A stretch of DNA of 64,000 nt. Origin: Clostridia bacterium (GTDB taxonomy: Bacteria > Bacillota > Clostridia > UMGS1840). The notes under the pieces were generated by a model, which was not told the origin of the DNA, ran no database searches, and saw nothing but the letters and a program-made list of their open reading frames with translations. How positions within the stretch are numbered: position 1 is the first letter of the stretch; every line of letters begins with the position of its first letter. The stretch lies in contig JAZRFJ010000001.1 in assembly GCA_045661305.1 (NCBI GenBank), positions 2,970 to 66,969 on the forward strand. The letters run 5' to 3'. Position numbers and translations under genes: made by a program. This document shows positions 4,069 through 62,849 of the stretch, piece after piece.

Positions 4069-4198
4069 GTTTTTTTACCTCCTAATTTTTTGGTGTAGAT
4101 TATACACCATTATAATTAAACACTTCTATCAGTATACTATTTTTTTCAACTTTAGTCAAGTGTTTTTAATAAATTTTAACAAATTATACTTTAAATTT

Positions 4199-4546
4199 TT
4201 AGCCTGCTGGCCATGTAAGCTCTCTTCCGCCGATAATATGGAAATGAATATGAAAAACTGTCTGTCCCGCATCTTTATTACAATTTGAAATAACACGGTA
4301 ACCGTTTTCGTCTATTCCCTGCTCTTTTGCAATTTTTGGAATAGCTTCATATATTTTTCCTATAACTTTGGAATTTTTTTCATCCACATCATTAAGTGTT
4401 GAAATATGCTCTTTTGGTATAACGAGTATATGTACCGGTGCTGTTGGTGAAATATCCCAAAACGCATAAACATAGTCATCTTCATATACCTTTTTTGAAG
4501 GAATTTCGCCTTTTATTATTTTACAAAATAAACAATCATCCATCAT
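4199..4546 (-). CDS. HIT-family nucleotide hydrolase/transferase
   Basis: 115 aa with the histidine-triad motif HIHFHII near the C-terminus and CLFCKI at the N-terminus. Confidence 0.9.
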   Translation of the reverse strand: MMDDCLFCKIIKGEIPSKKVYEDDYVYAFWDISPTAPVHILVIPKEHISTLNDVDEKNSKVIGKIYEAIPKIAKEQGIDENGYRVISNCNKDAGQTVFHIHFHIIGGRELTWPAG

Positions 4547-4558
4547 TCTTCCCTCCGA

Positions 4559-7210
4559 TTATTTATTTATCTGTGCAGAAAGAATATCTTCAGCTTTTAT
4601 GATAGCTTCATCAATTTTGTCCTTATCTTTTCCGCCACCTTGCGCCATATCAGGTTTTCCGCCGCCTTTACCGCCTGTTACAGCAGTAACTTCTCTTATG
4701 ATATTTCCGGCATGAGCACCTTTTTCTATAGCCTCTTTTGAAGCACCTGCAACAAATGTTATTTTATCATCCAAAGCTGATGCAATAACAGTTACAACAG
4801 CATCATTAATATACTTATCTCTTATATTGTCAATCATCATTTTAAGCTCGGAAGCTTCTGAACCATCCATTCTGAATGCAAAAAGCTTTATTCCCGAAAC
4901 TTCTTTCATATTCTTTTCAATATCGTTTACTGCTCCCTTTGAAAGCTGTTGTTTAAGGCTGTCAATCTCATTTTTCTTTTCTTTAAGCTCATTTACAACC
5001 TCTTCAGTCTTTTTAACAAGGTCGCTTAAATTGTTAATCTTCATCGCTTTTGCAGTTTCAATAAGAATATTTTCTCTTTCTTTCTGATATGAAAGGTAAT
5101 TTGCACCTGTAACGGCCTCGATTCTTCTTACACCCGCTGCAACACCGCTTTCAGAAACTATTTTGAATAAACCTACCTGTGAAGTATTTGTAAGATGTGT
5201 TCCTCCGCAAAGCTCTTTTGAGTAATCACCCATCGAAACAACTCTTACTCTTTCTCCATATTTTTCACCAAACAATGCCATAGCACCTGTTTTCTTTGCT
5301 TCCTCAATGCTCATATATTCGCATTTTATATCGTATGCACTTAAAATTGCATCATTTACAAGCTCTTCAACTTTTTCTATTTCATCAGATGTCATAGCTG
5401 AAAAATGAGAAAAGTCAAATCTCAATCTTTCTGAATTTACAAATGAACCTGCCTGATTAACATGGTCACCAAGCACAGTTTTCAATGCTTTTTGGAGAAG
5501 ATGTGTTGTTGAGTGGTTTCTTGCTGTTGCAAGCCTTGTTTTTTTGCAAACACTCATTTTAACAGCATCGCCGACTTTTAAAGTTCCCTCTTCTACTTCA
5601 GCAGTATGTCCGATTTTGCCTTGTGAATATTTAACTGTATCTAAAACTACACATTTTGAAGATGATGATGTTATAACACCCTTATCGCCTGCCTGTCCAC
5701 CGCTTTCTCCATAGAAAGAGGTTTTATCTGTGATAACAGAAACCTTATCTCCAGCTTTCACCTCTGTAACACTCTTATTATCTTTAAATAATGCTATAAC
5801 CTTTGCATCACATGAAAGCTCATCATAGCCTACGAACTCACAATCATCAAGCTCTTTTAAAAGCTTTGCAATTTCGTTTTCCCATCCTAAAGATGAAGTA
5901 TCGCCTCTTGCTTCTCTTGACTGATTTTTCTGTTTTTCCATTTCTTCTCTGTATTTGTCTTCATCAACGCTAAAGCCGTTTTCTTCTGCAATTTCCCTTG
6001 TTAAATCAAGAGGAAATCCATATGTATCATGAAGCTTGAAAGCAACAGAACCGTCAAGAACAGTTTGTCCGCTTTTTTTCATATCAGCTATAATATCATT
6101 TAAAATAACGATACCTGAATCTATTGTCTTGTAGAACTTTTCTTCCTCTAAGCTGATAATCTTTTTGATATATTCCTGATTTTCAAAGATTTCAGGATAT
6201 GCGTCTTTGGACTGTGAAATAACAACATCAGCAAGTCCTGTTAAAAACATATCGTTAATTCCAAGTAATTTTCCATGTCTTGCAGCACGGCGAAGAAGTC
6301 TTCTAAGAACATAACCTCTTCCCTCGTTTGACGGAATAACACCATCCGAAACGAGGAAAACTGTACTTCTTATATGGTCTGTAACAACACGGATTGAAAT
6401 ATCTGTCTTATGGTCTTTTCCATATTCCTTGTTACAAAGCTTACATACGCTGTCAAGGACTTTTCTTACTGTGTCAACTTCAAAAAGCGAATGAACTCCC
6501 TGCATAATAGCAGCAATTCGCTCTAACCCCATACCTGTATCTATATTAGGATTAGCAAGCGGATTATAATTTCCGTCAGCATCTTTGTCAAACTGAGTAA
6601 AAACAAGGTTCCAGAATTCAACATATCTGTCGCAATCACAGCCTACCTTACAATCAGGCTTACCGCAACCGTGTTCTTCTCCTCTGTCAAAATATATTTC
6701 AGAACAAGGACCGCAAGGACCTGTTCCTATTTCCCAAAAGTTGTCCTCTTTACCAAATCTCACCATTCTATCAGGTGATACACCAACTTTTTTAGTCCAG
6801 ATGTCATAAGCCTCGTCATCATCAAGATAAACGCTCACCCAAAGCTTGTCCACAGGAAGCTGCAATCTTTCGGTGATAAATTCCCATGCCCAACCTGTTA
6901 CTTCATTTTTAAAATAGTCACCAAACGAAAAGTTGCCGAGCATTTCAAAGAATGTTCCGTGTCTTGCAGTAATACCAACACGCTCAATATCAGGTGTTCT
7001 TATACATTTCTGACATGTTGTTACTCTTTTTCTTGGCGGAGTTTCTTCCCCTGTAAAATATTTTTTGAGTGGTGCCATACCTGCATTTATAAGAAGAAGT
7101 GAATTATCGTTTATCGGAACAAGCGGAAACGATTTCATCTTCAAATGTCCTTTTTCTTCAAAGAAAGATAAAAATTCTTCTCTTATCTCATTTAATCCCA
7201 TTTTTTTCAT
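4559..7210 (-). CDS. alaS: alanine--tRNA ligase
   Basis: Class II AlaRS core, editing domain (HSTTHLL, CGGTH) and C-terminal DHHA1. I moved the start to ATG 7210 (MKKMGLNEIR), which has an AAGGAGA RBS 10 nt upstream. Confidence 0.95.
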   Translation of the reverse strand: MKKMGLNEIREEFLSFFEEKGHLKMKSFPLVPINDNSLLLINAGMAPLKKYFTGEETPPRKRVTTCQKCIRTPDIERVGITARHGTFFEMLGNFSFGDYFKNEVTGWAWEFITERLQLPVDKLWVSVYLDDDEAYDIWTKKVGVSPDRMVRFGKEDNFWEIGTGPCGPCSEIYFDRGEEHGCGKPDCKVGCDCDRYVEFWNLVFTQFDKDADGNYNPLANPNIDTGMGLERIAAIMQGVHSLFEVDTVRKVLDSVCKLCNKEYGKDHKTDISIRVVTDHIRSTVFLVSDGVIPSNEGRGYVLRRLLRRAARHGKLLGINDMFLTGLADVVISQSKDAYPEIFENQEYIKKIISLEEEKFYKTIDSGIVILNDIIADMKKSGQTVLDGSVAFKLHDTYGFPLDLTREIAEENGFSVDEDKYREEMEKQKNQSREARGDTSSLGWENEIAKLLKELDDCEFVGYDELSCDAKVIALFKDNKSVTEVKAGDKVSVITDKTSFYGESGGQAGDKGVITSSSSKCVVLDTVKYSQGKIGHTAEVEEGTLKVGDAVKMSVCKKTRLATARNHSTTHLLQKALKTVLGDHVNQAGSFVNSERLRFDFSHFSAMTSDEIEKVEELVNDAILSAYDIKCEYMSIEEAKKTGAMALFGEKYGERVRVVSMGDYSKELCGGTHLTNTSQVGLFKIVSESGVAAGVRRIEAVTGANYLSYQKERENILIETAKAMKINNLSDLVKKTEEVVNELKEKKNEIDSLKQQLSKGAVNDIEKNMKEVSGIKLFAFRMDGSEASELKMMIDNIRDKYINDAVVTVIASALDDKITFVAGASKEAIEKGAHAGNIIREVTAVTGGKGGGKPDMAQGGGKDKDKIDEAIIKAEDILSAQINK

Positions 7211-15385: not shown

Positions 15386-15460
15386 TGGAGCGGAAGACGA
15401 GATTCGAACTCGCGACGTTCACCTTGGCAAGGTGACGCTCTACCACTGAGCCACTCCCGC
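15386..15460 (-). tRNA. tRNA-Gly (anticodon GCC), CCA encoded
   Basis: I folded the cloverleaf by hand: gcgggag acceptor, anticodon loop cuuGCCaa, T-loop GTTCGAATC. Confidence 0.9.
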
Positions 15461-15476
15461 ATAATATTTGAAATTG

Positions 15477-15552
15477 TGGTGCCTCCGACTAGAATCGAAC
15501 TAGTGACACAGGGATTTTCAGTCCCTTGCTCTACCAACTGAGCTACAGAGGC
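15477..15552 (-). tRNA. tRNA-Phe (anticodon GAA), CCA encoded
   Basis: Cloverleaf with acceptor gcctctg/cggaggc, anticodon loop cuGAAaa, T-loop GTTCGATTC. Confidence 0.9.
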
Positions 15553-15649
15553 AAATCTCTATGCACACTAAAGTGAGATGATAACTCCAAAAAACACCGA
15601 AACTTAAAACCAAGTCCCCCCGAAGTAAAACATCCCCCGAAAGTAAAGA

Positions 15650-15726
15650 TGGCGACCCGGATGGGGTTCGAACCCACGACCTCTAGCGTGACAGGCTAGC
15701 GTTCTAACCAGCTGAACTACCGGGCC
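15650..15726 (-). tRNA. tRNA-Asp (anticodon GUC), CCA encoded
   Basis: Cloverleaf with anticodon stem ctagc/gctag, loop cuGUCac, T-loop GTTCGAACC. Confidence 0.9.
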
Positions 15727-19468: not shown

Positions 19469-21772
19469 TTAAAGCTTCGCTCTTATAATCTTTCCGCTTG
19501 TTGTTTTTGGAAGTTCATCTTTAAATACAACAATTCTCGGATATTTATACGGAGCAGTATGCTCCTTAACATAATTCTGAATTTCTTTTTTAAGTTCTTC
19601 ACTCGGGTCAGTTCCTTTTGTAAGGACTATGCTTGCTTTAACTACCTGTCCTCTTATTTCATCAGGCTCGGCAGAAACTCCGCACTCTAAAACATACGGA
19701 AGCTCCATAATAACATTTTCAATCTCAAAAGGTCCGATACGATAGCCTGAAGATTTGATAACATCATCAATTCGTCCTACATACCAATAGTAACCGTCCT
19801 CGTCTTTCCACGCAACATCACCTGTATGATAATATCCGTCATGCCATACCTCGTCAGTTTTTTCCTTATCACCATAGTAGCCTGAGAACAATCCGCAAGG
19901 TGCACCGTCTTTAATATTAATACAAATTTCTCCTGTTTCACTTGTTTTAACCTGCTTTCCGTCTGCATTAAGAAGCTCAACCTTATAAACAGGAGCAGGT
20001 TTACCCATTGAACCGATTTTGTGAGGCTTTCCAACAAGATTACCAATAATCATTGTGCTTTCCGACTGTCCGAAGCCCTCTTTTATCTGTAATCCTGTTA
20101 CTTTCTCAAACTGCCTGTAAACTTCAGGATTCAATGCTTCTCCTGCTGTTGTCATATGCTTTACAGATGATAAATCATATTTTGAAATATCCTGTTTAAC
20201 CAGCATACGAAGCATAGTCGGAGGTGCACAGAAGGTTGTTATATTGTGTTTTGCAAACATAGGAAGAATTTCGGCCGCATCAAAACGGTCAAAATCATAA
20301 ACGAATGTTGCAGCTTCACATAACCATTGTCCGTAAAGCTTACCCCACATTGCTTTTGCCCAGCCTGTATCTGATATAGTAAAATGCAGTCCGTCGGGGT
20401 CTACATTGTGCCAGTATTTTGCAGTATGGAAATGTCCCAAAGGATATTTATGATTATGTGCTGCAATTTTAGGATAGCCTGATGTTCCTGATGTAAAGAA
20501 CATAAGCATCAAGTCATCACCGCACGCAGTATCCTCTGTTCTATCAAAATGAGAGCTGAAACGCTTGTATTCTTCGTCAAAATTTCTCCAGCCTTCTCTT
20601 TCTCCGCCCACTATCATTTTTGTTGTAAGCTGTGGACAGCTTTGGGCTGCTATATCAACCTGATGTGCAACATCGTCATCGCTTGTACAGATAATTGCAC
20701 TTATTCCTGCTGAATCAAAACGATATTTAAGGTCATGCTCCTGAAGCTGATTAACAGCAGGAATAGCAATAGCACCAAGCTTATTAAGACCGAGCATTGC
20801 AATCCAGAACTGATAATGACGCTTTAAAATAAGCATAACTCTGTCGCCCTTTTTAATCCCAAGAGAAGCGAAATAGTTTGCACACTGGCTTGAAAGCTTT
20901 CTCATATCTGTGAAAGTAAATCTTCTTTCCACATTATCTTTTGAAATATGAAGCATAGCAAGCTTGTCCGGTTCTCTTCTTGAAAGCTCATCAACAAGGT
21001 CGAAAGCAAAATTAAACTTATCTTCATTTTTGAATTTTATTGATGTCGGTGTTCCCTGTTCATCTTCTGTAACATCAATAAATTTATGGTATATTCTGTC
21101 TTTTGTGTCCGCACTTTTATGTACAGTACCTATAATCTGTTCAGTAGTAGCCATATCGGAAGCCATTTCCTCAACAGTATCATCATCAGCCCTGAGTACA
21201 AATGCATAAAATTTGCAGTCCTTTCCGTCTACTGCAATCATTCCGTGGGGGGTTTTACTGTTATAATAGATACTGTCACCAGGACCTAAAACTTCTTTAT
21301 GATTGCCAACCTGAACCATAAGATGTCCTTCGATTACTATATCACATTCCTGACCTTCGTGGGTTTTTAATTCAATGTCCTTATGTAACGCATCTTCACT
21401 GTAAACACATTCAACATAAAGAGGCTCAGCAACACGCTTTCTGAATGAAGAAGCAAGATTATAATAGGTCATTCCGTGTGCTTTTTCAATTCTTTGACCT
21501 TCTCCTCTTCTGGTAACGGTATATGATTTAAGCATAGGGCTTACACCCTCAACTATATCAGTAACATCAACACCGAGTGCAATCGCACACCGGTAGATAA
21601 ACGCAAAGCTCAAATCATGCTCGCCCTTTTCACAAGCCACATATTCTTCTTTTGTAACATCAGTAAGCTTTGCCATCGTTTCAACAGAAATTCCCATAAT
21701 TTCTCTTAATTCTTTGATTCTTTTGGCAATCTCCATTATTTTTAAATCCAAACCGATAAAGCCCTTATCCAT
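19469..21772 (-). CDS. fusion protein: XRE-type HTH + cupin + AMP-forming (medium-chain-type) acyl-CoA synthetase
   Basis: HTH (IKELREIMGISVETMAKLTDV), cupin (GPGDSIYYNSKTPHGM), and AMP-binding motifs FTSGTSGYPK, YHTGD, GRIDDVIKSSGYRIGPFEIE, PKTTSGKIIR. I set the start at ATG 21772 (MDKGF), which has an AAGGAGA RBS. The 19 upstream codons of the ORF-track call translate the arm of a structured element. Confidence 0.85.
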   Translation of the reverse strand: MDKGFIGLDLKIMEIAKRIKELREIMGISVETMAKLTDVTKEEYVACEKGEHDLSFAFIYRCAIALGVDVTDIVEGVSPMLKSYTVTRRGEGQRIEKAHGMTYYNLASSFRKRVAEPLYVECVYSEDALHKDIELKTHEGQECDIVIEGHLMVQVGNHKEVLGPGDSIYYNSKTPHGMIAVDGKDCKFYAFVLRADDDTVEEMASDMATTEQIIGTVHKSADTKDRIYHKFIDVTEDEQGTPTSIKFKNEDKFNFAFDLVDELSRREPDKLAMLHISKDNVERRFTFTDMRKLSSQCANYFASLGIKKGDRVMLILKRHYQFWIAMLGLNKLGAIAIPAVNQLQEHDLKYRFDSAGISAIICTSDDDVAHQVDIAAQSCPQLTTKMIVGGEREGWRNFDEEYKRFSSHFDRTEDTACGDDLMLMFFTSGTSGYPKIAAHNHKYPLGHFHTAKYWHNVDPDGLHFTISDTGWAKAMWGKLYGQWLCEAATFVYDFDRFDAAEILPMFAKHNITTFCAPPTMLRMLVKQDISKYDLSSVKHMTTAGEALNPEVYRQFEKVTGLQIKEGFGQSESTMIIGNLVGKPHKIGSMGKPAPVYKVELLNADGKQVKTSETGEICINIKDGAPCGLFSGYYGDKEKTDEVWHDGYYHTGDVAWKDEDGYYWYVGRIDDVIKSSGYRIGPFEIENVIMELPYVLECGVSAEPDEIRGQVVKASIVLTKGTDPSEELKKEIQNYVKEHTAPYKYPRIVVFKDELPKTTSGKIIRAKL

Positions 21773-21802
21773 TTTAAAATTCTCCTTTTTTAAAATATAC
21801 TC

Positions 21803-22080
21803 TAGCGTGACAGTAGTTATCCGAACCACGCCTGGAATGGCGTTATTTCGGCATTTTTTAACTTGTCGCTCTCGAAAGGCGACAGCCTTACTTCGTTCTC
21901 CGCGTCAAAAACTGCTCAAAATTCCATCCCTTTCAGGTTCAAAGAATTTTTTGCAAACTATTTTTATGTCAATACAAGAAAAAAACGCAAGCAATACTGT
22001 TGTATTGTCAAGGCTTTTGACGCAGTAGTGACAAAAAAGAGAAAGCAAAAAACGAGGTTCGGATATCTTCTGTCACGCTA
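21803..22080 (-). ncRNA. unclassified 278-nt hairpin-bounded structured leader element, copy 1 (homologous to 51287-51563)
   Basis: The 25-nt terminal arms (22080-22056 and 21827-21803) are 23/25 complementary. The element is collinear with the copy upstream of hisS, and internal hairpins sit at matching positions. Confidence 0.55.
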
Positions 22081-22085
22081 CACAT

Positions 22086-22402
22086 AAAAAAACCCGCCTC
22101 AAAGAGTTTTTCAATGTCTTTGAGACGAGCTTATAATCAAAAATCAAAAATTATAATACCCGCGGTACCACTCAAATTGCACTTTTTAAAAAAAGCACCA
22201 CTTTCAGACTCTTTCAAGCCCTATGCACTAACGCAGCCTACGCGAAAAGGTTCTACTTGCTTTTATAAAAAATAAAAAAGCTTTCTTCCTTTCAACTCAG
22301 GAGCTACAAACATCGGTATTCACTTTTTTGGCTCGCACCAACCGCCAATTCTCTCAAAAGCTATCTCCGAAGCCCTCTCCGTCAAAGTTTTTAAATTTTT
22401 AC
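22086..22402 (-). promoter_or_regulatory. T-box riboswitch leader (tRNA-sensing transcription attenuator)
   Basis: AG box GAGAGA (22350-22355), distal loop GGUUGGUGCGA (22333-22343) and T-box sequence AAUUUGAGUGGUACCGCG (22161-22178). An 11-bp terminator with a U7 run lies at 22086-22127, and its 5' strand (CUCAAA) can alternatively pair with the T-box UUUGAG. Confidence 0.85.
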
Positions 22403-39710: not shown

Positions 39711-39785
39711 GGCGGATTGGTCAAGCGGTTAAGACACGGCCCTCACAAGGCCGAAACACGGGTTCGATTCCCGTATCCGTCACCA
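39711..39785 (+). tRNA. tRNA-Val (anticodon CAC), CCA encoded
   Basis: Hand-folded cloverleaf: acceptor ggcggat/atccgtc (G2-U71 wobble), anticodon stem cggcc/ggccg, loop cuCACaa, T-loop GTTCGATTC, discriminator A73. Confidence 0.8.
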
Positions 39786-46372: not shown

Positions 46373-47494
46373 TCAATTTTTAGAATAATCAATGATAAGA
46401 TTACATGTATTGCAATTATCATAACAGTAAACATAAACTACCTTTTTCAACATGGAAAGCTCTCTGAAATCTTCATATGTCATTACTGAATAGAAACTAT
46501 TGAAATTTATAGTCCCAACAGTCGTTTCAAAAGAATATGCACAAATTCTATCATCCCATTCAACTTCTTTTATATTAGACCAATTTGTCAACTCGCTCTC
46601 GCTTGAAAAGCTGTCAACCTTTTTAAATATTCCAAGCATATTTCCACCGACATAATAAGGAAGCCCTGCAACTGCATATCCGCAAAGCTGAGGTGTTCTT
46701 GGTTGAACTTCTGCTGGCTTTAATGTACTGATATTATACAACAAAGCCTCTGTCTCGGTATTATTTCTTTCATCTCCTGCAGTTGAAAGCATACCATAAT
46801 AATAACCGTTATCATAGTTTATAAGATGTCTGTATAAAGATATTTCATTTTGAGCGTTAAGTGCATACCAAATAATGTCATTGTCTCCTATCTCATATAC
46901 ATCTTCGTTTTCTATTCCTGTTATACCGATTTTTTGAGGACTTTGTGCCACTGCATATGTAACCTCCTCACCATTTACAAATCCTGTAACAGCACCATCC
47001 GCAACTGATTTTACAATCATTGGGTATGCACCGTAATCCAGTGCCAATTCAACCTCATCAAAATTATTTTCAACAATCAAACAATTCTCATTTTCGTTTA
47101 CATTGGCTACCGATTTTAAAGTATCAAAATTTTCTATAAGAATAACTTTAAAAAGATATTCTTCAATTTCAAGATCATTTAATAAAACAGGTACAGTTGT
47201 TGTTCTTTGTGTTTCATAAGCGAACATATTTCTTTTGTAATATTCTTTAGAAGAACATCCCACAAATCTGCCGTTTTTATCGTCATACACAGCTACAATA
47301 ATAAGAAATTCTGTATTAACATCTTCTATACATTCATCAACATAGAAAGAAATTTCAGCTTCTAAATTATTACCGCCTTTGAATGTAACACTTTCGAATT
47401 TATAATTAAAATCATACAATGGCTCTGCCATAACGCAGTTAAAGCTCATGAAAATCAAAATAAAAATTACCATTGTCAAAAAAATCCTTTTCAT
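46373..47494 (-). CDS. secreted protein of unknown function
   Basis: 373 aa with a signal peptide (..FNCVMAEP). I recognise no motif. Confidence 0.55.
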   Translation of the reverse strand: MKRIFLTMVIFILIFMSFNCVMAEPLYDFNYKFESVTFKGGNNLEAEISFYVDECIEDVNTEFLIIVAVYDDKNGRFVGCSSKEYYKRNMFAYETQRTTTVPVLLNDLEIEEYLFKVILIENFDTLKSVANVNENENCLIVENNFDEVELALDYGAYPMIVKSVADGAVTGFVNGEEVTYAVAQSPQKIGITGIENEDVYEIGDNDIIWYALNAQNEISLYRHLINYDNGYYYGMLSTAGDERNNTETEALLYNISTLKPAEVQPRTPQLCGYAVAGLPYYVGGNMLGIFKKVDSFSSESELTNWSNIKEVEWDDRICAYSFETTVGTINFNSFYSVMTYEDFRELSMLKKVVYVYCYDNCNTCNLIIDYSKN

Positions 47495-51251: not shown

Positions 51252-51280
51252 TTGACTTTTTTTCCTTATTATGTTAAAAT
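51252..51280 (+). promoter_or_regulatory. sigma-A promoter of the hisS-aspS operon
   Basis: TTGACT, a 17-nt spacer, then TAAAAT. The predicted TSS falls at about 51287, the first nt of the structured element. Confidence 0.65.
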
Positions 51281-51286
51281 ATACTT

Positions 51287-51563
51287 TAGTCATCGGAGTG
51301 TCGAACTGTTTGCGGTTTAAAAAGGAAAATTTTGTATAATACTGCAGAAAATTCTGCAAATATACGACAGTATAATTTTTGAATTTTCCTTGTCTTTTAT
51401 CAAAATTTTCTCTTTTTTAACTCTCCGACCTTATACTTAGAAAAATTTCAAATGATTTGGATGCGGAGTTTGAAGTTGGGCTATCGCCCTACAAAAACGA
51501 CAAGTTCAAAGCATTAAAATTTAGCAAGTATAAGGCGTAAAGAGTTCGGCCCTCCGATGACTA
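51287..51563 (+). ncRNA. unclassified 277-nt hairpin-bounded structured leader element, copy 2 (homologous to 21803-22080)
   Basis: A perfect 12-bp closing helix (51287-51298 with 51552-51563) extends imperfectly to about 30 bp. Nested hairpins are present. The element is collinear with copy 1. Confidence 0.55.
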
Positions 51564-51593
51564 TGAAATAATTTTTTAAAGGAAGTAAAAAAA

Positions 51594-52862
51594 ATGAGCG
51601 TAAAAATAACAGCTCCTAAAGGCACAAAGGACATTTTGCCTGATGAGAGCTACAAATATCAATATATAGAAGATACCTTGCGTAATCTTAGCCGTACCTT
51701 TAATTTTCACGAACTAAGAACACCAACCTTTGAACATACCGAGCTTTTTTTAAGAGGTGTGGGTGATACAACAGATGTTGTAAATAAAGAAATGTACACT
51801 TTCTTGGACAAGGGTGACAGAAGTATCACATTAAGACCTGAGGGTACAGCAGGTATAGCAAGAAGCTTTGTTGAACACGGACTTTACAGCGGTGTTCTTC
51901 CCCAAAAGCTTTACTATCTTATTTCCTGTTTCCGCTATGAAAAACCGCAGGCTGGCAGATTAAGAGAATTCCATCAGTTCGGAATTGAAATGATGGGAAC
52001 AGATACTCCGTCTGCTGATGCTGAGGCAATTATGTTTGCAGACAGTATATTTGAAAAATTCGGATTAAAAGATTTTATAACCTTAAATCTTAACAACATA
52101 GGCTGTAAAACCTGCAGAAAAGAATATAACGACAAATTAGGAAATTTCCTTTTCGAGAAAAAAGACGAGCTTTGCGAAACCTGCAGAGAGCGTATGGAAA
52201 AAAATCCTATGCGTGTTTTTGACTGCAAAAGTCCTGTATGTAAAAGCATAGTAGAAAACGCACCTACAATTTTCGATTCTGTGTGTGACGGTTGTAAGGA
52301 TCATTTTAAAAAAGTTACGGATATTCTTGATAATGTAGGAATTTCATATAAAATAGATAAAGCTATCGTTAGAGGTCTTGACTACTATTCAAAAACTGTT
52401 TTTGAGTTTGTGACCCAGAACATCGGTGCACAAGGGACTGTGCTTGGCGGTGGAAGATATGACGGTCTTATAAGCGATATTGGCGGTAACGATGCAGCTG
52501 GAATAGGCTTTGCTATGGGACTTGAAAGATTGGTACTTCTTCTTTCACAGATAGAAAACTTCCCTGTAAAAGCTGACACCCCTGACATTATGCTCATTCC
52601 TATCGGTGATGAAGCTAAAAAGACTGCGTATAAGCTTCTTTACGATTTAAGAAAGAACAATATCGCCGCAGAAATTGATATAAACGAGCGTTCAGTAAAA
52701 GCACAGATGAAATATGCCGATAAAACAGGTGCAAAATATACTGTTGTAATCGGTGATGACGAAGTAAATAACGATAAATATACTTTAAAAAATATGCAAA
52801 ACGGAGAAACCTGTGAGCTTAATCTTGCGGGAATTTCAAAATATATGGAGGAAATCAAATAA
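51594..52862 (+). CDS. hisS: histidine--tRNA ligase
   Basis: 422 aa, class II aaRS (GTKD, LRPEGT, FRYEKPQAGRLREFHQ, GGGRYD). Confidence 0.95.
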   Translation: MSVKITAPKGTKDILPDESYKYQYIEDTLRNLSRTFNFHELRTPTFEHTELFLRGVGDTTDVVNKEMYTFLDKGDRSITLRPEGTAGIARSFVEHGLYSGVLPQKLYYLISCFRYEKPQAGRLREFHQFGIEMMGTDTPSADAEAIMFADSIFEKFGLKDFITLNLNNIGCKTCRKEYNDKLGNFLFEKKDELCETCRERMEKNPMRVFDCKSPVCKSIVENAPTIFDSVCDGCKDHFKKVTDILDNVGISYKIDKAIVRGLDYYSKTVFEFVTQNIGAQGTVLGGGRYDGLISDIGGNDAAGIGFAMGLERLVLLLSQIENFPVKADTPDIMLIPIGDEAKKTAYKLLYDLRKNNIAAEIDINERSVKAQMKYADKTGAKYTVVIGDDEVNNDKYTLKNMQNGETCELNLAGISKYMEEIK

Positions 52863-62518: not shown

Positions 62519-62547
62519 TTGACAAAATGAATTTTTTGTGTTAAAAT
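62519..62547 (+). promoter_or_regulatory. sigma-A promoter of rplJ-rplL
   Basis: TTGACA, a 17-nt spacer, then TAAAAT. Confidence 0.7.
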
Positions 62548-62552
62548 AACTC

Positions 62553-62849
62553 TGTTGTTCCTAAGACAATAGGTGTCAGGTGGGATTCAGGGAGATTTGA
62601 AAGGCATTTCGTATGCTGATTAAGTTGATTGGAAATCTCGTATCTTCTGACTTAAAGTTTCGCCTATCGAGGATAATATAAAAATTGACATTATTTTAGA
62701 TTTTTATATGCTACCCTCGTTTGTCTTGCGGGGGTAGCGTTTTATTGTGTGTTAACACAACAAGGTTCTCCGAAATTCTCGAATTTTAATTCGTTAGAAT
62801 TTCGTGAGGTTCTTATTTTACTATAAATTAAATGGAGGTGTAAAGGTTT
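62553..62849 (+). promoter_or_regulatory. ribosomal protein L10 leader (autoregulatory attenuator)
   Basis: A long structured leader sits between the promoter and rplJ. The 5' part CCUAAGACAAUAGGUG resembles the L10(L12)4 binding mimic. An intrinsic terminator gctaccc/ggggtagc with a U-tract lies at 62710-62746. Confidence 0.6.

Follow-up and report, generated by a model that had tools for sequence, protein, structure and literature searches.

We analysed a 64,000-nucleotide stretch of a Clostridia bacterium genome (contig JAZRFJ010000001.1; hereafter the window), in which two non-coding units of almost equal length, copy 1 and copy 2, stand directly ahead of two genes. Copy 1, on the minus strand, is wedged between the terminator of a T-box leader and the ribosome-binding site of a gene for an HTH_3-cupin-AMP-binding ligase fusion; copy 2, on the plus strand, lies upstream of hisS. 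An earlier note had taken the pair for a selected RNA fold in the leaders of these genes. Our analysis indicates instead that the 278-base unit is a copy of a small, non-coding, TA-duplicating MITE (a transposable element of the miniature inverted-repeat class) and not a gene-specific RNA switch, a reading to which we assign a probability of roughly 0.88. The features concerned are as follows; the TA duplications were placed by comparing empty with filled sites.

21803 to 22080, minus strand: copy 1, 278 bp including the TA at both ends, between the T-box terminator and the ribosome-binding site of the HTH-cupin-AMP-ligase gene (nhmmer E = 4e-54).
22079 to 22080, minus strand: upstream TA of the target-site duplication of copy 1.
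22054 to 22078, minus strand: left terminal inverted repeat of copy 1 (GCGTGACAGAAGATATCCGAACC..), the 5' strand of the terminal helix (helix 1).
21946 to 22052, minus strand: left arm of copy 1, a long A+U-rich hairpin with an AUAC-NACA-GUAU tip (helices 2-4).
21826 to 21942, minus strand: right arm of copy 1, the module that the family conserves best (helices 5-7; match to the covariance model R1 at 107 bits, E = 1.8e-21).
21860 to 21903, minus strand: conserved core within copy 1's right arm, GCGGAG..GAAGU-[hairpin]-..CGACAAGUU.
21805 to 21829, minus strand: right terminal inverted repeat of copy 1, the 3' strand of the terminal helix (helix 1).
21803 to 21804, minus strand: downstream TA of the target-site duplication of copy 1.
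51287 to 51563, plus strand: copy 2, 277 bp including the TA at both ends, upstream of hisS (nhmmer E = 1.8e-72).
51287 to 51288, plus strand: upstream TA of the target-site duplication of copy 2.
51424 to 51540, plus strand: right arm of copy 2 (R1 match at 120 bits, E = 1.7e-24).
51562 to 51563, plus strand: downstream TA of the target-site duplication of copy 2.
22086 to 22394, minus strand: T-box leader with terminator and U-tract, intact and outside the element (T-box at 22118 to 22394, terminator and U-tract to 22086).
19469 to 21772, minus strand: the HTH_3, cupin and AMP-binding ligase fusion gene, downstream of copy 1.
51252 to 51280, plus strand: promoter-like site of hisS, TTGACT-17-TAAAAT (with TG), kept in relatives that lack the element.
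51594 to 52862, plus strand: hisS, downstream of copy 2.

The two units are collinear and self-complementary at their ends, as the earlier note had described. Copy 1 begins on the minus strand with TAGCGTGACAGAAGATATCCGAACC and closes with its inverted complement, 23 of 25 positions matching (22080-22056 against 21827-21803), while the inverted ends of copy 2, TAGTCATCGGAGTGTCGAAC and GTTCGGCCCTCCGATGACTA, match at 18 of 20 positions and can be extended to 25. Two ungapped internal blocks are shared, one of 54 nt (40 identities) and one of 40 nt (26 identities). That these exceed expectation was also claimed and is borne out by a local alignment score of 40, compared with 18.5 +/- 2.6 for 500 shuffles (maximum 31) and 20 against the reverse complement. 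A pattern of 28 bases from the core is found at exactly two places in the window, where none is expected, and none of 100 shuffles yields the shared core pattern. Overall identity is only 48%, and copies 1 and 2 belong to two diverged subfamilies. Their placement agrees with the first description as well: both stop 30 nt before the ATG of the following gene, with the Shine-Dalgarno (SD) sequence outside the element, and copy 1 starts 5 nt past the U-tract of the T-box terminator. The -10 box of the hisS promoter lies 6 nt ahead of the insertion point of copy 2.

HisS and ligase homologues were fetched together with their contigs, and the leaders were compared at orthologous sites. Copy 2 is present at the same site in a relative with 98% HisS identity (L025), absent from the hisS leaders of L026 (91%) and L027 (89%), and also missing in L028. 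The L026 and L027 leaders have the same TTGACT-17-TAAAAT promoter, SD and start codon and no element, and in L027 the mutS2-hisS synteny is intact. Copy 1 is absent from the ligase leaders of L033 (97% ligase identity), L029 (96%) and L030 (93%), which keep the T-box, terminator, SD and start, and is also missing in L031, where the T-box leader again occurs without it. The hisS empty sites of L026 and L027 read TAAAATataattTAtgaaa, whereas the filled site of the window reads TAAAATatacttTA[GTCATCGG...CCGATGAC]TAtgaaa. The ligase empty sites read gggttttttgatgtaTAgag (gatgtaTAgag), whereas the window reads gggtttttttatgtgTA[GCGTGACAG...CTGTCACGC]TAgag (tatgtgTA[GCGTGAC...GTCACGC]TAgag). Because at both sites the closest relatives lacking the element have a single TA where the window has TA[element]TA, each window copy was inserted recently and precisely at a TA, of which there are now two.

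A core pattern, GCGGAGNNNGAAGTNNGGCTNTCGCC, was run against a metagenome collection and a genome collection. The metagenome collection gave one true homologue (L002) and one GC-rich chance match; the genome collection gave 19 AT-rich matches, all in metagenome-assembled genomes (MAGs) labelled Clostridia, Acutalibacteraceae, Eubacteriales or Oscillospiraceae, and three GC-rich chance matches. About 19 homologues are known from 15 MAGs and one metagenome contig, in differing gene contexts. Searching again with a 15-copy profile and with R1, a covariance model for the right arm, recovered the pattern matches and two more divergent copies (L022 5057-5334 and L020 5072-5313). Matches by nhmmer and the covariance model in many other genomes have E values from 1e-10 to 1e-81. 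Scans of IMG/VR with two patterns gave no match, and a typical copy found none by blastn among PLSDB plasmids or INPHARED phages. In Rfam 15, no family covers the element at the gathering score (whole window), at E <= 10 (both copies) or at E <= 0.1 (nine homologous loci), in keeping with the view that it belongs to no recognised RNA family; the only matches in the window at the gathering score are four tRNA genes and an L10 leader (15389-15726 (-), 39711-39782 (+), 62542-62754 (+)).

Full-length elements measure 276-281 bp, and every one of them has terminal inverted repeats (TIRs) of 25-37 bp with 2-4 mismatches, nearly all running from TA to TA. There are at least eight TIR types, which share an inner YCGAAC motif about 13-17 bp inside each end and have outer halves that are unrelated between types but matched within a copy. 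Two subfamilies coexist in one genome in the window, in L022 and in L020. Copies with 92-95% identity occupy different loci (the hisS leader of the window, the xseA-xseB junction of L002, and L016); the L002 copy is ~93% identical to copy 2, yet sits between xseA and xseB. Neighbouring genes are unrelated housekeeping genes, including a pyrF-[element]-pyrE-[element]-pyrB operon, dxs, fhs (formate-THF ligase), an aminotransferase gene, xseB, a yycI-like gene, DUF5714, a PhoU-like gene, hisS and the ligase gene, and the homologues lie between cistrons, in 3' regions and after terminators. Many occupy the gap from a stop codon, whose TAA or TAG belongs to the element, to the next SD, as does even the antisense copy in L016; this placement fits a TA target together with the survival of harmless insertions. 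Shortened variants of 181-197 bp (L006 2587-2767, L007 6226-6425 and L020 536-734) keep the TIRs and the right arm and lack the left arm. Eight genome matches lie no more than ~150 nt from a contig end, which is repeat-like behaviour.

Together these properties are those by which bacterial MITEs are recognised: a length below about 500 bp with no transposase gene, TIRs, a target-site duplication visible from filled and empty sites, and unrelated, polymorphic loci. The MITE reading follows from the small size, the lack of an open reading frame (ORF), the 25-37-bp TIRs, the 2-bp TA duplication, the scattered polymorphic copies and the deletion derivatives. Inside the element the only ORFs are unconserved antisense ones, and neither window copy contains a sense-strand promoter or a sense-strand terminator. 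The 2-bp TA duplication is the one that characterises the IS630/Tc1-mariner group, and the mobilising enzyme is inferred to be of that type.

Several further observations concern individual copies. In L022, elements of different subfamilies (4140-4416 and 5057-5334) flank pyrE in the pyrF-pyrE-pyrB operon, each spanning from the upstream stop codon to just short of the next SD. The short variants of L007 and L020 lie just 3' of a tRNA gene and its terminator. Three elements (L004 5194-5470, L005 1016-1291 and L009 3146-3422) have the same left flank, with a small zinc-ribbon-like ORF, and the same left half, while their right halves and downstream genes all differ; the right end of the L005 element is of another TIR type. 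Such hybrids could reflect either recombination between copies or chimeric MAG assembly at the repeat. The targets of the two window copies also resemble each other: the right flank of copy 1, TA|GAGTATATTTTAA, and the left flank of copy 2 in reverse complement, TA|AAGTATATTTTAA, are identical at 12 of 13 positions (window 21790-21802 and 51274-51286), and ACAGAAAGGA adjoins the TA in both L002 (521-530) and L016 (1646-1655). Judging from these flanks, target preference may extend past the TA.

A number of points weigh against the MITE reading. Copy number looks low, with two per 64-kb window and one to three pattern matches per fragmented MAG, and neither the profile nor R1 finds a further copy in the window, or any in ~100 kb of DNA from sister species. 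The earlier note had held that dozens of near-identical copies with target-site duplications in scattered contexts would mark a MITE; the duplication and the scattered contexts were found, whereas the copies seen are few. No transposase and no full-length parent insertion sequence (IS) with matching ends was detected in the window or in ~340 kb of fetched loci, by blastn-short of the TIRs on all fetched DNA, an inverted-repeat scan for elements of 150-3000 bp and Pfam on nine unassigned window ORFs; this negative, confined to those sequences, is absence of evidence only. The assignment to the IS630/Tc1-mariner type draws on the TA duplication and the TIRs, and co-transcription of the two window copies is something we infer. 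Unlike textbook MITEs, the family has TIRs whose outer 13-17 bp are almost completely different between subfamilies yet complementary, and its most conserved part is the internal right arm. Finally, orientation relative to neighbouring genes is uneven, with ~13 loci sense, three antisense (L016, L015 and L021) and two ambiguous. For the ~13 of 16 scorable loci the two-sided binomial p is about 0.02, and this sense bias is real but moderate.

The element has a strong predicted fold. RNA folding z-scores against shuffles are -6.9 for copy 1 and -11.3 for copy 2, and the RNAalifold structure of 13-15 copies is a closed three-way junction, with a 26-pair terminal helix plus left and right arms. 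In the alignment of 15 homologues, 92.8% of cells are paired under the consensus structure, a share that falls to 36-52% once the 3' partners are displaced by 1-3 columns; double-sided changes occur in 61 of 94 pairs, all helices included, and none of 500 shuffles reaches the observed values. Because the aligned sequences share ancestry and also supplied the structure, these figures overstate significance and are not to be read as a probability, but the contrast is still large. The terminal helix has double changes in 23 of its 26 pairs. Of the three internal hairpins that had been proposed, the apical GGC-UNUC-GCC and the AUAC-GACA-GUAU hairpins are supported in the 15-sequence alignment. The third (gucaa/uugac in copy 1, ugcaga/ucugca in copy 2) is 83% paired with three double changes, and is rivalled by a longer-range helix that is 91.5% paired. 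The apex of the right arm is, in the consensus structure, a series in which G-C pairs and GA-on-GA oppositions alternate. The copy-2 lineage has three U-A pairs in place of two of the GA oppositions and one C-G pair, and in the divergent L022b and L020b copies the sequence of the apical hairpin is wholly changed while the flanking purine-rich strands are kept. In the predicted folds the element is self-contained, with SD and start codon outside its helices.

Compensatory change keeps the fold, and to this extent the claim that pairing is kept while sequence drifts stands; what does not stand is its interpretation as a leader RNA belonging to these genes. Differing but complementary ends are also expected of inverted repeats read by one protein. 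Mismatches in the terminal helix comprise 22 G-U, 17 A-C and 27 others, and those in the left arm 7 G-U and 10 A-C. This lack of strand asymmetry is as expected of inverted repeats that a single protein reads as duplex DNA, which would keep the ends matched within a copy while copies differ.

On the MITE reading, a transposase supplied in trans would read the 25-30-bp TIRs and make a 2-bp staggered cut at a TA. Insertions would persist mainly where they do little harm, in a 5' leader or in the few bases between a stop codon (TAA or TAG, either of which gives TA) and the next SD. Both window copies are probably co-transcribed with their genes: copy 1 would be transcribed only upon read-through of the T-box, and the hisS mRNA would begin at or within the first bases of copy 2. 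In the mRNA the element would fold on itself as the predicted three-way junction, with a terminal helix of 26-30 bp and two arms, leaving terminator, promoter and SD unaffected. Its effect on the host genes is likely to be small, that of a structured 277-nt passenger in the leader. The predicted 26-30-bp stem might nevertheless be an RNase III target or modify mRNA half-life, by analogy with Correia and ERIC elements, for which RNase III cleavage or a changed mRNA half-life has been shown (PMC2229807, PMC10969869). From the conservation of the right arm and the sense bias it would seem that a part of the element is selected as a single strand too, RNA being the simplest case.

Among the alternatives, the best survivor adds to the MITE reading instead of replacing it. 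It holds that the mobile element is selected mainly as a portable RNA module, the terminal stem and GA-rich right arm serving as a processing site, stabiliser or protein platform, and that sense insertions are retained as useful; this reading seems to us unlikely. The sense bias speaks for it, as do the right arm, best conserved in all subfamilies including the divergent L022b and L020b copies, the U-A replacements of the copy-2 lineage, which are as expected if those positions stack in a helix, and the precedent of bcr1 (PMC3184786). In the right arm G-U exceeds A-C by 23 to 5; three neighbouring columns at the end of one helix, however, supply 16 of those 23 G-U cells, and with them removed the ratio is 7:5, so that the excess is weak evidence for a sense-strand fold, and the G-U versus A-C asymmetry, tried as a test of RNA against DNA, is uninformative overall. 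The left arm and terminal helix have no strand bias, the sister species do without the element at the same sites, and the orientation bias may reflect harm from antisense insertions or a replication-strand bias rather than benefit. Moreover, template-switch correction of DNA quasi-palindromes can yield compensatory change without selection.

A more radical proposal is that the element is not a plain MITE but a mobile module that is read in its folded, single-stranded form, in which the ends matter only as a stem and the GA-rich right arm is the functional core, be it through transposition by way of a single-stranded intermediate recognised by its structure or as a portable RNA domain selected in sense orientation in operon mRNAs. 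It arises because the outer halves differ wholly between subfamilies yet always pair; we regard it as improbable. For either structural recognition or a functional RNA right arm, the chance is low but not negligible.

The narrower claim of transposition through a folded single-stranded intermediate, in which the ends pair and are recognised by structure (HUH-type or integron-attC-like) rather than by a DDE transposase, is more doubtful still. It would account for at least eight subfamilies whose outer 13-17 bp are unrelated yet complementary within each element, with almost all terminal pairs double-changed, for the coexistence of two subfamilies in one genome and for the orientation bias; the inner motif GTCGAAC...GTTCGAC is one that we take to be loosely like the R''/R' boxes of attC. 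However, perfect TIRs running up to a duplicated TA are the classic cut-and-paste signature of DDE enzymes, whereas IS200/IS605 and Helitron-type elements make no target-site duplication and lack TIRs. The attC crossover G|TT at the stem base is not seen here, the mismatches of the terminal helix show no G-T preference, and co-evolution with subfamily-specific transposases explains the matched ends equally well.

That the units are cis-acting structured leader RNAs, riboswitch- or leader-like, regulating the ligase fusion and hisS is very improbable, the empty sites and the TA duplications refuting it. The strong fold, the compensatory changes in all helices, the position of both window copies directly ahead of an SD and the lack of an Rfam match are what such a leader would show. 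Against this, the same leaders lack the element in relatives at 89-97% protein identity, with promoter, T-box, SD and start all kept, and a TA duplication bounds it. The neighbours are functionally unrelated and tied to no one gene class or pathway, some copies are found in 3' regions, and three or more run antisense to their neighbours; in addition, a complete T-box upstream of copy 1 already regulates the ligase gene. Coincidental similarity, like a segmental duplication that is decaying in this genome, can be dismissed despite the low overall identity of the window copies, given the shuffle controls and the highly significant matches in many genomes.

Other candidates were tried and rejected. 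A small peptide encoded in the conserved core fails, since in some copies stop codons interrupt the frame; of a tRNA-like T-arm, the right TIR could form only 3 bp; no reverse transcriptase gene lies near enough for a retron msr/msd; and no internal outward promoter was found on the sense strand. An integron attC site, which would have R''/R' boxes (RYYYAAC/GTTRRRY) at its stem base and cassette ORFs associated with it, was set aside: TA forms the base of the stem here, the GTCGAAC-like motif is found 13-17 bp further in, and the insertion holds no ORF.

The host loci have features of their own. The T-box at 22118-22394 (-) scores 79.4 bits (E = 2e-17), below the Rfam gathering score of 93. 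Its pairing with the HTH_3/cupin/AMP-binding (acyl-CoA-synthetase-like) fusion, an unusual T-box target, is kept in relatives down to ~82% protein identity. In Bacillus subtilis the hisS-aspS operon is under T-box control; hisS-aspS of this lineage has no T-box and a short leader of ~50 nt from the TTGACT-17-TAAAAT promoter (L026 2520-2595, L027 9960-10033, L028 9920-10000; window 51252-51593). Elsewhere in the window, a 373-aa ORF at 46373-47494 (-) has a signal-peptide-like N terminus and no Pfam match. It is absent at the same site in L025 (98% HisS; 5674-6048), where ~200 bp rich in CATGAATT/AATTCATG repeats is found instead (L025 5720-5910).

These results remove a false lead, in that a folding, covarying 5'-untranslated-region element with no Rfam match resembles a new riboswitch class but is a transposon insertion. 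They also put on record a MITE family, not listed before, in uncultured Oscillospirales of gut and rumen; where its elements lie, MAG assemblies break off into contig ends, and hybrid junctions can arise. The hisS and T-box-ligase leaders provide natural pairs of filled and empty alleles on which to measure what a structured insert of 277 nt does to mRNA fate. A core kept better than the ends, ends that vary but match, and a sense bias make a small, testable puzzle about how the element is recognised.

Several known systems bear comparison. Like riboswitch and T-box leaders, the element is a structured piece of the 5' untranslated region whose helices covary and which lies just upstream of the SD; it differs from them in that orthologous sites are not conserved, no gene class is served, no expression platform is present and the SD is not sequestered. 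EFAR elements are palindromic intergenic repeats of the same type as ERIC/IRU. ERIC/IRU elements share with the present one imperfect palindromes in transcribed intergenic regions, often by stop codons, with effects on mRNA stability (PMC2229807). These and EFAR-type repeats differ in having other hosts and shorter single hairpins, whereas the mobility of the present element is shown directly by empty sites. The bcr1 repeat of the Bacillus cereus group is likewise a small, mobile, transcribed Firmicute repeat whose distribution varies between close strains, and its multi-stem RNA fold is kept by compensatory base changes, so that even the covariation of our element has a precedent (PMC3184786). 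In contrast, bcr1 is ~155 bp long, has 5-bp direct repeats and not TA, forms two independent stem-loops where the present element forms a closed three-way junction, and is unrelated in sequence.

Known MITEs combine TIRs, TA termini, target-site duplications, long RNA stem-loops and RNase III processing (PMC2229807, PMC10969869). Correia/NEMIS elements of Neisseria resemble the present one in TA duplication, TIRs of ~25 bp, insertion near genes and co-transcription, likewise have no transposase assigned to them, and their TIRs pair in mRNA to give a long stem cut by RNase III (PMC2229807, PMC10969869). They differ in length (100-155 bp), proteobacterial hosts, an integration host factor site, promoter-like ends and unrelated sequence, and the stem of our element is known here as a prediction of 26-30 bp. 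RUP of Streptococcus pneumoniae is an IS630-Spn1-dependent MITE of proposed IS630 type and is also non-coding and intergenic in a Firmicute host, with TIRs, TA insertion and termini, and presumed mobilisation in trans (PMC2229807). RUP is 107 bp long with ~100 copies per genome, has no reported internal motif and has TIRs that match a known IS, whereas the present element is 277 bp long with a branched fold, a conserved internal arm, a low copy number, no parent IS found and no sequence similarity, and membership is not claimed. Unrelated in sequence to RUP, Correia, bcr1 or any Rfam family, the element represents a new family of MITEs, of a kind that is itself well known.

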